A model generated the notes under the pieces. The model searched no databases. It worked only from the letters and a program-made list of their open reading frames with translations, and was not told the origin of the DNA. From NCBI GenBank assembly GCA_038046805.1, contig JBBSVO010000008.1, positions 1 through 28,731 on the forward strand: 28,731 bases of DNA, in the 5' to 3' direction. Positions 1,906-28,731 of the stretch are shown piece by piece. Position 1 is the first letter of the stretch. Every line of letters begins with the position of its first letter. Source of the DNA: Candidatus Micrarchaeota archaeon. Its GTDB lineage: Archaea; Micrarchaeota; Micrarchaeia; Anstonellales; Bilamarchaeaceae. The position numbers were made by a program, and so were the translations under genes.

Positions 1906-1978
1906 GGTTGCACCCATTCAATCGAGAAAATTCAGAAATTTTCGAGAGCATGGGTGCTAAGGTTGCACCCATTCAATC
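1906..1978. repeat. Duplication of the endA 3' end with intervening inverted repeat
   Basis: GGTTGCACCCATTCAATC at both 1906-1923 and 1961-1978. An inverted partial copy ATGGGTGC sits at 1950-1957. Confidence 0.85.
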
Positions 1979-3138
1979 TCGAAATATTCATACTCGCTTC
2001 CTGGCAAATCAAGCCTTTTGATTGCATAATACGTCACAGAGCTTTCCCTGTCTGAAATTGCCATCAGCATATCCAATTCAAAGTGCTTGCATTCAAATAA
2101 TGCCTTTGCCAATTCCTCTCCGCCGATATATTCATCCTCTGTGAGCGATAACATGAGATATTTGGGCGAATTCTCCTTTGGGTTTTCTATCCCGTCCTTT
2201 TTGCGATGATAGAGAAGGAAGTCCAAGCGCGGATGCTTTGGATTTACCTTTATGTCCAGTTTCTTTCCCGGAATAGCAAGAATAAATGTCTTTTTCACAG
2301 AATGCGCAACCCGGATTGCACGCGCCCATTCCGAGATAATCAGCTTGCTCTTTCGGGGAAATACATGAATAACATGACGGGAATGCATCCATTCATCGCC
2401 CTCGCGAATTGGAGATGCGCCTGGAAAATAAATCCTGAAATGAGTTCCGAACTTGAATCCTGTTTTGACTACATAACCACGTTTACGCCAGTCCTCATAA
2501 ACAGAGTACATATCATCGAAATATTTTATGCGCTCATCTGCCGCGGAAACAACAGAATCTGGCTTCGCGTTTCTGAGGCTGAGTCCGCCATGCTTGGCAA
2601 GATAAATCGTTTCATAAACATCAAGTTTTGAAATTTTCCCCCGATGGGCTGCTTTATATGTTCCGAACTGACCAATCCAGTATTTTTCATAAAGGTCTTT
2701 TCCAACAAGCTCATCATCAACGATGGTAAGAAGGTCGTCAGGAAAAAAAAGGCCAGTGAATGAATACGAATCAAGCTTTAACTTCTCGGATTTGTACCGT
2801 TTTGCTCCGCCCCGACCATATTTCCCGTCACTTTTAATTTCAGTAGCATTGCGGAGAATAAGGCCTTTGTCACGCCAATCTTTATACGTAAGATAGCGAG
2901 CAAGTGCTTTTGGATTTTTTGCATAAAATTCGGCGACATCATTGAATGAGAAGGTGTTTCCGCTTTCGTCAAAGCATTTTCCATTGCGGATATCCATTAT
3001 GTACAGCACTTCTTCTGGCTCAAGATAAATAATGCCCTTGCGCATACGCCCATAAAAACCGTTTGAAAGGGAAGAAACGTCTTCTGCTTCCTTGACACAT
3101 ATCTCCCCGCTTTTCCGGTTAAGCTCTAACCTAATCAC
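1957..3138 (-). CDS. endA: tRNA-intron (splicing) endonuclease, three-unit epsilon2/ARMAN-like
   Basis: GYVVKTGFKFGTHFRIY, HS and RVAHSVKK motifs give the Tyr/His/Lys triad. Duplicated N-subdomain (EPEEVLY..YKDWRDKG and DVYETIY..YEDWRKRG). 393 aa. GTYK loop at residues ~159-162. Confidence 0.93.
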   Translation of the reverse strand: MIRLELNRKSGEICVKEAEDVSSLSNGFYGRMRKGIIYLEPEEVLYIMDIRNGKCFDESGNTFSFNDVAEFYAKNPKALARYLTYKDWRDKGLILRNATEIKSDGKYGRGGAKRYKSEKLKLDSYSFTGLFFPDDLLTIVDDELVGKDLYEKYWIGQFGTYKAAHRGKISKLDVYETIYLAKHGGLSLRNAKPDSVVSAADERIKYFDDMYSVYEDWRKRGYVVKTGFKFGTHFRIYFPGASPIREGDEWMHSRHVIHVFPRKSKLIISEWARAIRVAHSVKKTFILAIPGKKLDIKVNPKHPRLDFLLYHRKKDGIENPKENSPKYLMLSLTEDEYIGGEELAKALFECKHFELDMLMAISDRESSVTYYAIKRLDLPGSEYEYFEIEWVQP

Positions 3139-26250: not shown

Positions 26251-27129
26251 CTACTGATGCGCGGATTCAAAAACATGATTTCCACGTGAATTGCAATATA
26301 AATTCGGTTGAACCAATTCTTCAAAAGTAGGTGGCCTTTCAAGTAATTGCATTATCAATCCGGCACCAAGAGCCGGTCCAGCTTCAATTAAAAATCGAAT
26401 CGCAATCAAATGCCTATTTTCGGTAAAGAAATTGGCAATTGTATAAAGATCATCACTCTTGATTTGTACCGGATTCGTTTCTTGTAGTTTTTGATCTACT
26501 TTATCATACGACTCCCTGAATCTATCAGACACACCTTCCAAAACACTATGCTCTTCTAAGACGAGCATAGTAGTGCCAATTGCCACTAATTCCTTAAGCG
26601 GAAGCTTCGCAATGCCATTTCGCGCAGCGCGCATTACTTCTTCGTCAAAATTTCCGGTTTCTATTTTTTTTAATAAGGAGATATTTTCGGATGTAAACCG
26701 TCTTGATTCTTCAATATGCCTTGCGTGCAACAGATGGACAAACTCGTGGATAGTGACTTTTTTCACAAATTTTATTACCATTTCAGTATGTTCCCGGACT
26801 AATTCGGAATCGGGCGTATGCCCGCCCAATCCATATTTTTCAATCTTGGTTTCAACGATTCTGCGAATTGGTAAATAGATTACTCTCCCCCATATAGCCC
26901 ACCCCATTGTGACGGGCTGCTTAAAACCGAAAGATTTGTCTTGGAGATAAAGATGCATATCATAACCAGGGATTCTTTTCAATACAATTAGTTTTTCTAT
27001 TTCTCCTTCTCTGATGCTTATGCCAGTAGCTTTTTCAATGCGTCTTTTCTGCTCACGCAAAAATGCTCTTGGATCAACTGCAGCATGTACTGCATCGAGC
27101 ATGTGCCTTCTTACTTCTCGCCTTGTCAT
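26251..27129 (-). CDS. Hypothetical protein with HExxH zinc-metallopeptidase motif
   Basis: VTIHEFVHLLH, with LKELVA downstream as a possible third ligand. TTTAAATA box ~23 nt upstream. Confidence 0.65.
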   Translation of the reverse strand: MTRREVRRHMLDAVHAAVDPRAFLREQKRRIEKATGISIREGEIEKLIVLKRIPGYDMHLYLQDKSFGFKQPVTMGWAIWGRVIYLPIRRIVETKIEKYGLGGHTPDSELVREHTEMVIKFVKKVTIHEFVHLLHARHIEESRRFTSENISLLKKIETGNFDEEVMRAARNGIAKLPLKELVAIGTTMLVLEEHSVLEGVSDRFRESYDKVDQKLQETNPVQIKSDDLYTIANFFTENRHLIAIRFLIEAGPALGAGLIMQLLERPPTFEELVQPNLYCNSRGNHVFESAHQ

Positions 27130-27236: not shown

Positions 27237-27357
27237 GAAACGTTGAACTCAAAACTCGGAAATCTAAACGGGAAACTCCAGACCAGTGTCTCATTGCCCA
27301 ATGTCCATTGCTCACTGCTCAAAGCCAGCAAGACTCAAAACTCAAGACCCTAGACTC
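27237..27357. repeat. Degenerate heptamer tandem repeats downstream of the glnA-like gene
   Basis: GAACTCA AAACTCG GAAATCT AAACGGG AAACTCC; CATTGCC CAATGTC CATTGCT CACTGCT; AAGACTC AAAACTC AAGACCC TAGACTC. Confidence 0.7.
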
Positions 27358-28720
27358 CAAAGTATCTGTCCATCTCCCATCGGTTTATGGATTTCGCTGA
27401 ATTCCTGTGTTCCTCAAGCTTCATTTCAACATAATCTCCGAGAAGCTCTGCGGAAAATACGCCTTTTAGGAATTTGATATCGCTATTAAGGGATTCCACC
27501 GCGCCCTTTAGGGTTTCGGGAAGTGGTTTGTTAGGGCCGGATTTCTTTTTTCCACTATCTCCTTCCAGAGGATCGCCTGGCTCAATCTTGTTTTTTATTC
27601 CGTCTATTCCCGCGGAAACGACTGCACTGAAAGCAAGATATGGATTGATTGCAGGATCTGCAAGAGTAAATGCAATCCGCTTGCGTTCCCGGTCATTTTT
27701 CTTTAGGTAGGGAACCTGAATCAATGAATTACTTCCCTTTCCCCAACCATATTGCTTTGGATCTGAGGCAAGCCTGCGATAGGAATTCGAGGTAGGATTG
27801 GTAAAAAGGCAGAGCGCTGGCGCGTGCTCAAGCAATCCACCGATATAATAACGGGCTGCCTGACTCATTTGCGCGTATTCATCGCTGGCATCATAGAATA
27901 AACTTGTATCTGAACCTTTCCAAAGACTCTGGTGAATATTACAGCTGCTTCCTTTTTCCCCTTCAACCGGATAAGGCATGAAGGACGCGACGGCATTTCC
28001 AACAAGGGCTATGTTTTTTGCAACAAGGCGAAGAGTGGCAAATGCATCTGCAGCACCTTTCAATGATTTATGCGATATGTCAACGCATTGTTGGCCAGAT
28101 TGTCCTCTTCCGTGATGATGGGATTCTACCGGAATGCCAAACTGTTCTTCAAGCGTGTCACTCAATTGATTTCTCGCTGGATATAACGAATCTGTAGGTG
28201 GAGAAACAAATGAACCGCTTTTCCTGTACGCAAGAGGGGATGGACTCCAGGGAGATTCACGGGAATCAACCAACGTGCCTCCACCTCTGCCTACTGCTGT
28301 ACGCTCAGTTGTCGCATTCTCAAACATATAAAATTCAGTTTCTGTGCCAATACGACACTCTTTCATGCCGAGTGCCTCGAGATTTGTTTCGACACGCTCT
28401 ATAGTGTAACGCGAATCTTTTACAAAACGTTCTCCGGTTATTGCTACAACAACATCGCAAATAAGCCGTATTGAAGAATTTTCCCATGGAACCCTTGCCA
28501 ATGACTCTGGATCTGGAAGAAGAATTAATTCGCCCTGCTCGCTCTTTCCGAAAACCTCAGAAAGATCTGCGGCAGAGATTCCTTTTGTAAAGGATGACTC
28601 TTCCAAGTCGTTACGGGAGATTGAAACCCTGTGCATTGTTCCGAAAAGATCAAAGAACTGCAAGTCGATCCATTTGATTTCGTTTGTAGCGATATACTTC
28701 ATGACGTCTTCGATTGCCAT
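27350..28720 (-). CDS. glnA: Glutamine synthetase type I homologue with a degenerate active site
   Basis: IDLQFFDLFG, LLPD, GTETEFY, SFMPYP, IHQSLWK, YYIGGLLEHA, NSYRRL and DPAINPYLA give the GSI fold. Many catalytic residues are substituted. Confidence 0.9.
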   Translation of the reverse strand: MAIEDVMKYIATNEIKWIDLQFFDLFGTMHRVSISRNDLEESSFTKGISAADLSEVFGKSEQGELILLPDPESLARVPWENSSIRLICDVVVAITGERFVKDSRYTIERVETNLEALGMKECRIGTETEFYMFENATTERTAVGRGGGTLVDSRESPWSPSPLAYRKSGSFVSPPTDSLYPARNQLSDTLEEQFGIPVESHHHGRGQSGQQCVDISHKSLKGAADAFATLRLVAKNIALVGNAVASFMPYPVEGEKGSSCNIHQSLWKGSDTSLFYDASDEYAQMSQAARYYIGGLLEHAPALCLFTNPTSNSYRRLASDPKQYGWGKGSNSLIQVPYLKKNDRERKRIAFTLADPAINPYLAFSAVVSAGIDGIKNKIEPGDPLEGDSGKKKSGPNKPLPETLKGAVESLNSDIKFLKGVFSAELLGDYVEMKLEEHRNSAKSINRWEMDRYFGV

Positions 28721-28731
28721 TTTACCACCGA

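Follow-up and report, generated by a model that had tools for sequence, protein, structure and literature searches.

The window, the whole 28,731-nucleotide stretch analysed here (contig C8 of a 1.2-Mb genome that is 86% complete), carries on its minus strand a glutamine synthetase (GS)-like gene at positions 27350..28720, whose 456-aa product (P0001) is a catalytically degenerate type I-beta GS-like protein. We found that P0001 belongs to a clade of proteins retained under strong selection across much of its lineage after most of their active-site residues had been lost. The reading that we favour is that these proteins probably form a GS-derived, non-catalytic homo-oligomer that works as a binding platform, with the face of the N-terminal domain as the candidate surface, judging from conservation and structural models.

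P0001 combines a GS fold with a degenerate active site

The frame of P0001 opens with ATG and runs for 456 aa with no internal stop, 3 nt behind a Shine-Dalgarno-like GGTGGT (28724..28729, minus strand), which bears out an earlier reading of the DNA made from its letters alone (the sequence-only reading), in which frame and ribosome binding site (RBS) were described as intact. Both GS domains were matched by Pfam (PF03951 over residues 15-91 and PF00120 over residues 102-453), and the AlphaFold model (pLDDT 92.8, pTM 0.93) has the beta-grasp and catalytic domains of the GS fold; its top Foldseek matches were type I-beta GS, with a TM of 0.92 to 8v1y. P0001 groups with GSI-beta and shares with type I-beta GlnA (TIGR00653; E. 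coli 8v1y, Synechocystis 3ng0) the two-domain fold, the beta-type insertion, the C-terminal thong, a predicted two-fold interface and descent. It differs from active GlnA in the loss of 10 of 17 scored active-site positions and of the flap, in an adenylylation loop that is shortened relative to type I-beta GS, and in a TIGR00653 score of 326.3 bits, under the equivalog cut-off of 429.15, where the intact copy of the same genome (contig C9) scores 629.

We scored the active site at 17 positions under Salmonella residue labels, some of which follow the sequence-only reading. The roles of these positions agree with what the consulted parts of three structural and functional studies report (PMC10799026, PMC6076278, PMC8394153). 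P0001 was aligned to solved GSI-beta chains and to the intact GS of its own genome. In a degenerate metal-ligand motif at residues 201-212 (28085..28120), where H201 and H203 are invariant, the ligands E212 and E220 are replaced by G204 and C212; at residues 256-263 (27932..27955), the degenerate N264/H269/H271 motif, N264 and the metal ligand H269 are replaced by K256 and N261, and H263 is kept here only; at residues 330-352 (27665..27733), R339, R344, the metal ligand E357 and R359 are replaced by S330, Q335, A350 and T352; and Y179 is replaced by S170. Three residues are missing between D320 and P321 (27758..27763; all these features lie on the minus strand), and with them the catalytic E327 flap is gone. 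P0001 falls short of an active GS at the six metal ligands, of which only E129 and E131 are kept, and at the E327 flap, N264, Y179, R339, R344 and R359. The seven positions that it retains are D50 (by one alignment), E129, E131, G265, H271, S273 and R321.

The formal alignment restored none of the residues that the sequence-only reading had listed as substituted; it confirmed every one of those substitutions and added Y179 to S170. The same reading had called the FDGSS motif unrecognisable. The loss of GSS stood, and the loss of the whole region did not, since D52 of P0001 aligns with D50 in the alignment of fetched loci (50 of 75 dead-clade rows), although D50 itself is uncertain because its column is shifted in another alignment (0 of 121).

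The pattern is not peculiar to P0001. The best 120 matches, homologues with 52-94% identity, have the same degenerate pattern, and the degeneration of P0001 is therefore not chance or an assembly error. Every source organism that is named belongs to the Micrarchaeota (Ca. Bilamarchaeum dharawalense is one), and the titled records come from Bilamarchaeaceae and Anstonellales. The fetched loci yielded 168 distinct GS-family proteins of 350 aa or more: 75 kept 2-8 of the 17 positions, 5 kept 9-12 and 88 kept 15-17. We call the lower group dead and the upper group intact; the groups are defined by the residue count itself, and the evidence is the gap between the counts. E212, E220 and E327 occur in 0 of 75 dead-clade proteins and in 88 of 88 intact ones (E327 also in 0 of 121 in a second alignment), and H269 and E357 persist in 1 and 4 of the 75. 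E129 and E131 are each present in 47 of 75 and H271 in 9 of 75, so that the ligands retained by P0001 are not what the dead family conserves; the earlier statement that E129, E131, H271 and R321 remain is right for P0001 and does not extend to the family. Judged by these residues, P0001 and the dead clade as a whole would be without glutamine synthesis activity.

The dead gene is widespread and under purifying selection

In a 301-genome sample of the phylum, a strong match (E<1e-188) was present in 61 of 64 other genomes of its family (f1), with a weak match in one more and none in two; the residue check for f1 covers the fetched subset of genomes. All 14 genomes of family f9 have a match, and the 12 that were residue-checked are all dead. 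The dead gene was present in f1, f9 and f3 and was not found in f6, f8 and f12. Among 61 genomes, it was the sole GS-family gene seen in 11 of the 21 that carry it and are at least 90% complete, counts that rest on incomplete assemblies. The other 10 have another PF00120 match; they include G038, where the second gene is GSIII-sized, and G003, which was removed from the sole-copy count because an intact-type GS start, cut off by a contig end (L194:888-1064), lay hidden there. The latter genome also holds two dead-gene copies (L034 and L035) that are 99.8% identical, probably an assembly duplicate. In five f9 genomes of only 0.5-0.7 Mb (completeness 83-88%), just one GS-family match was seen, and it proved dead in all four that were checked. 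The consulted part of PMC12892359 describes an accelerated loss of genes in Anstonellales.

The dead gene is thus steadier across the lineage than the working GS, and it stands outside the known nitrogen circuits. P-II was found in 0 of 37 f1 genomes and in 1 of 61 overall, Amt as one weak fragment in the 37 and in 2 of 61 overall, and NrpR in 0 of 61; MerR_1 was not found in this genome (86% complete), and no NrpR-type operator was seen in 74 upstream regions. The sequence-only reading had suggested looking for glnK, amt and a second glnA, and of these only the last was found: an intact GSI-beta glnA lies at L001:10780-12222 (plus strand) on contig C9, unlinked to the dead gene. We observed side by side P-II, Amt and an intact GSI-alpha on contig C126 of G056 (L193, L071), the only such cluster among the 61 genomes. 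No conserved gene neighbour or operon was found at the dead-gene loci. Clustering places a phosphoglucosamine-mutase-like gene close to the dead gene at 22 of 68 loci (a second count was higher, with duplicates), mostly in divergent orientation and within one subclade. Because this genome has it on contigs other than that of the dead gene, we treat the association as synteny and rejected the gene as a partner.

We estimated selection by the Nei-Gojobori method. Thirteen between-genome comparisons of dead genes that were not saturated gave dN/dS values of 0.041-0.106, and five intact pairs gave 0.028-0.070; two further dead pairs were saturated, and the near-identical copies of G003 were set aside. 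Between this genome and a congener, the values were 0.054 for the dead gene and 0.028 for the intact GS. Selection on the dead genes is therefore strong, if somewhat relaxed. A BRE-TATA-like word occurs in 54 of 72 dead-clade upstream regions (mean 15.5 and maximum 28 in shuffles; 3 of 70 further upstream), which points to a promoter of the dead gene's own, and an RBS-like word occurs in 64 of 72. The promoter pattern was written after the sequences had been viewed, and it does not match this genome's own upstream region, which has a TTTTAAAT box. The same word was present in 21 of 87 intact genes, a low count that we do not interpret, as their starts are approximate. In an RNA run, 6% of the words were present; one low-depth contig spans 28582-28731 and others span neighbouring genes, and contigs of this kind cannot show transcription. 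The GC3 of the dead gene is mid-range (44th percentile) and uninformative.

A decaying pseudogene or an assembly artefact would fit the orthologue in G004 (L017), whose one in-frame TAG may be a real loss or a sequencing error, and would fit the fast evolution of the f9 and f3 copies. Against such a reading, dN/dS is about 0.04-0.11, the frames are open in nearly all genomes, promoter and RBS are conserved and the fold is predicted with confidence, and we regard decay as having next to no probability. The proposal in the sequence-only reading that the protein was repurposed as a non-catalytic one, rather than left to decay, is supported by the intact orthologues, by dN/dS near 0.05-0.1, by the single clade and by the clade-wide loss of residues.

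The dead clade derives from a native Micrarchaeota GS

The dead proteins formed one clade (support 88 and 100 in two trees, and 100/100 in an IQ-TREE LG+G4 tree). The trees were built with FastTree or LG+G4 and have long branches in f3 and f9; one kept 15 dead rows from f1 and titled records, and the IQ-TREE one 40 chosen rows. The clade is nested inside intact GSI-beta-like enzymes of other Micrarchaeota (100/99), its nearest intact relatives along with GSI-beta-like enzymes of Thermoproteota and Nitrososphaerota. The intact GS of f1 genomes sits elsewhere, in a separate GSI-beta clade (as in this genome) or in GSI-alpha. When the dead clade was forced together with the resident GSI-beta, the topology was rejected (p-AU 1.3e-5); the dead gene thus did not arise by duplication of the intact GS that contig C9 carries. 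These results identify the dead gene as the lineage's native glnA, with a single origin from an intact Micrarchaeota GSI-beta.

Sister rows of the dead clade have intermediate counts. L174 (G149) and L159 (G235) keep 11 and 12 of the 17 positions; E212, E220 and H269 are gone in both, and R339, R344, E357 and R359 are kept. Each of these genomes has a second strong GS, and G087 has an intact native copy together with a second strong GS match. Denser sampling brought further intermediates. P0132, P0135 and P0141 are half-degraded native GS with metal ligands lost and the ATP-side arginines mostly kept. The branch order of the intermediates is not firm, with unstarred support of 86/85 and 87/91 and an order that shifts in another tree. 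Catalysis probably went step by step at a time when glutamine synthesis was covered by a second GS, the metal ligands disappearing before the ATP arginines.

Loss of GS catalysis is not unique to this clade, since degenerate GS-like proteins also occur elsewhere, and on the more densely sampled tree the dead label has to change at least 10 times. P0270, P0243, P0223, P0221, P0269, P0187, P0229 and others (4-9 of 17 positions) are scattered outside the dead clade, near the other GSI-beta group. A distinct GS-like group in family f18 (L185, L186 and L188; 9 of 17 positions) sits next to the dead clade on a long branch; it keeps E212, E220, H269, E357 and R359, has lost the flap, N264 and R321, and may be a different ligase or a stage of loss. 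What sets the dead clade apart is its broad, vertical, sole-copy retention.

Predicted self-assembly and the candidate surface

A two-copy model of P0001 gave a homodimer score of 0.69 (best of three controls 0.00), with contacts agreeing to at least 97% and pLDDT of at least 86; 20 of 30 solved pairs attain the mark that this model passed, as does 1 of 23 single chains. The model's success may be a memory of solved GS structures, and it shows likeness only. The predicted interface comprises residues 136-158 and, as its main part, the C-terminal helical thong (residues 439-456; 27353..27406, minus strand), the elements that make the inter-ring contact of GS as described in the consulted parts of PMC9249791 and PMC6076278. 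In f1 the predicted inter-ring residues have a conservation of 0.63, against 0.67 for the rest of the protein and 0.77 in intact sisters; the interface is thus no better conserved than the remainder and relaxed relative to the sisters, which speaks against the reading that we favour.

We next compared conservation along the protein between 44 balanced f1 rows (51.6%) and 42 intact rows (54.6%), two sets of similar divergence. Conservation falls at every active-site loop, by 0.15 to 0.33; the falls cover the D50 loop, the E129 strand, residues 201-220, the N264 loop, the flap region, residues 381-400 and the thong (441-450, by 0.22). It rises by 0.15 to 0.25 at residues 1-20, 71-80, 111-120 and 181-190. 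In the Bilamarchaeaceae dead clade, the N-terminal helix and first strand (residues 4-20; 28661..28711) are more conserved than in intact relatives of similar divergence, by 0.22 to 0.29 in 10-residue windows. The largest gain is at helix 180-190 (28151..28183; both on the minus strand), where the invariant R183 maps to a pocket between the N-domain and the adjacent subunit of a methanogen GS (PMC10799026, consulted in part). This N-domain gain is seen in f1 and not in f9; it was found post hoc, with no significance test, and it may be structural, as helix 1 is similar in the active methanogen GS. W17, R85, R183 and H201 are invariant and map to the same pocket in the Methanothermococcus enzyme, which binds 2-oxoglutarate according to the consulted part of PMC10799026. 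In P0001, D19, N184 and H201 replace three of the pocket ligands, and intact relatives share the residues, for which reasons we read these positions as subunit glue. A proposed intra-ring salt-bridge set rests on a circular choice, having been drawn from invariant positions, and we discarded it as evidence.

If the favoured binding platform is correct, dead GS would still assemble with itself in the manner of GS, as stacked hexamers; a partner would dock on the outer N-terminal-domain face of the ring; and the selected function would sit at the junction of the N-domain and helix 180-190, not in the old funnel. Cells with only the dead copy would get glutamine from hosts, peptides or uptake. 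A more far-reaching version, which we put forward tentatively and do not expect to hold in full, is that once, early in Anstonellales-type Micrarchaeota, a GS became a near-universal structural ring or head-to-head filament whose N-domain face is indispensable even at 0.5 Mb. Head-to-head filaments of E. coli GS use the N-terminal helix, as stated in the consulted part of PMC11800386.

Alternative roles

Other roles for an inactive GS have to be weighed against the binding platform. The protein could be an inactive regulatory subunit that co-assembles with an active GS and tunes it, one of the options raised in the sequence-only reading. It has a GS-like fold and GS-like predicted interfaces, and a second strong GS match or fragment is present in this genome and in 23 of 36 other family genomes. 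The 11 of 21 carriers at least 90% complete in which no other PF00120 match was seen stand against a general role of this kind, as do the missing linkage between dead and intact genes and the lack of a constant partner, the intact copy being GSI-beta, GSI-alpha or, in one genome, GSIII-sized; we consider the tuning subunit very unlikely. A nitrogen-status sensor or transcription-factor chaperone, resembling GS-GlnR/TnrA or the 2-oxoglutarate-switched methanogen GS, has in its favour that such non-catalytic roles of GS exist (PMC9249791 and PMC10799026, in the parts consulted), that the strongest conservation gain adjoins the 2-oxoglutarate pocket and that an Lrp/AsnC-family gene (L001:10007-10489, minus strand, contig C9) stands head-to-head with the intact glnA. 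GlnR binding, however, requires the E flap and bound glutamine, as given in the consulted part of PMC9249791, and the flap is deleted in P0001; only R85 and R183 match among five 2-oxoglutarate ligands, with R20 replaced by D19, R175 by N184 and S191 by H201; and the searches for P-II, Amt, NrpR, MerR_1 and the NrpR-type operator gave the near-empty counts reported above. A regulator or sensor of the classical nitrogen type, also raised in the sequence-only reading, is consequently improbable. The sole-copy genomes and the missing P-II, Amt and NrpR together disfavour both options.

A re-tooled enzyme or small-molecule binder, in which the emptied funnel does other chemistry or binds a nucleotide or polyanion, could account for the partial retention of S273 (59 of 75), G265 (69 of 75) and R321 (55 of 75), for G204 and Q211, which are clade-specific at 96%, and for basic residues gained in the funnel (R205 at 80% and K256 at 74% in f1). 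Gamma-glutamyl ligases, however, still need metal and ATP ligands, and these are gone here. The funnel has not acquired a new set of invariant polar residues; its replaced positions vary freely, the mean top-residue share being 0.58 for f1 and 0.43 for f9, compared with 0.95-0.96 for intact proteins; and some relatives retain just 0-2 of the 17 positions. Archaeal GS-like proteins with a new ligase activity do exist, for example Haloferax GlnA-2 (PMC8394153, in the part consulted), and on balance we judge re-tooling unlikely. We also considered nucleic-acid binding, for which the shift in net charge (-6.7 against -13.8) is modest and too little to support a claim. A search of the ESM Atlas returned ordinary GS clusters only. 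The scaffold option of the sequence-only reading stands as the binding platform that we favour, by inference only, and the probability left over belongs to roles that we did not consider, such as bulk storage.

Comparison with known systems

Pseudo-GS is already a known kind of protein, represented by lengsin of the vertebrate lens, and further degenerate GS-like sequences turn up here and there in the databases. The dead clade resembles lengsin in being derived from GSI, inactive by its residues and retained, with catalytic residues lost and the fold under purifying selection, which supports lengsin as the functional precedent named in the sequence-only reading. Lengsin is described as dodecameric (PMC2667176, consulted in part). 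P0001 is without an N-terminal extension. The two would have separate origins, given that the dead clade nests among archaeal enzymes in trees that held no lengsin sequence. The GSI-gamma gamma-glutamyl-amine ligases (Haloferax GlnA-2, PuuA-type NF045547) also have a GS fold without GS activity, with E327 and Y179 replaced, and the consulted part of PMC8394153 describes Haloferax GlnA-2 as still an enzyme, which ligates putrescine with 10 of 18 residues retained. P0001 has lost the metal ligands and phosphate arginines as well, and its NF045547 score of 200 against a cut-off of 650 places it outside that group. In Bacillus GS-GlnR/TnrA, in human GS moonlighting and in E. coli filaments, GS rings act as binding platforms independently of their catalysis (PMC9249791 and PMC11800386, in the parts consulted). 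Those rings are active GS, whereas P0001 would be left with a non-catalytic role only, and our searches found no partner of the GlnR or P-II type. The pocket of the 2-oxoglutarate-switched archaeal GS (F18, R20, R88, R174, R175 and S191; PMC10799026, consulted in part) corresponds in P0001 to W17, D19, R85, R183, N184 and H201 and is not preserved. For the P-II/Amt/NrpR/GlnR circuits, partner genes were not found in the genomes, which are incomplete, or the neighbourhoods searched.

The sequence-only reading knew of no described archaeal equivalent, and in the literature searched we likewise saw no account of a dead GS from Micrarchaeota or any other archaeon, although supplementary tables and phylogenies or subscription journals could mention the clade. 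The main texts of PMC12892359 and PMC8561730 are without the word 'glutam', and the consulted part of PMC5864196 mentions GS only for Parvarchaeota. A specialist would not anticipate that, in reduced symbiont genomes, a dead 50-kDa enzyme is retained more faithfully than the working one. In the dead family, the contribution of GS beyond catalysis, whatever it may be, stands isolated, and the gradation from intact through metal-ligand-deficient to fully dead proteins makes the birth of a pseudoenzyme testable with few expressible proteins. Databases label the dead proteins 'glutamine synthetase', and reconstructions consequently credit many Bilamarchaeaceae and relatives with an ammonium assimilation that is probably absent. 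If the structural ring or filament were true, the clade would be the first prokaryotic equivalent of lengsin, one whose intermediates still exist, and it would reveal that archaeal GS has a non-enzymatic job hitherto hidden.

Neighbouring genes

Contig C12 (1.3 kb) overlaps the end of the window, and its sole content is a 338-aa open reading frame (ORF; L002:182-1195, plus strand) directly upstream of the P0001 gene, with no NCBIfam match. Just 3' of P0001 on the same strand, a 292-aa ORF (window 26251-27129, minus strand) has no Pfam match; an HExxH motif and a later glutamate suggest a zinc-peptidase-like protein, and the ORF is not conserved as a neighbour. Beyond the pair of intact glnA and Lrp/AsnC gene on contig C9 lie genes that resemble, by eye, a NiFe hydrogenase cluster. 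At window positions 1957-3138 (minus strand), a 393-aa tRNA splicing endonuclease-like protein is longer than a single unit, with one full catalytic-domain match and a weak N-terminal match.
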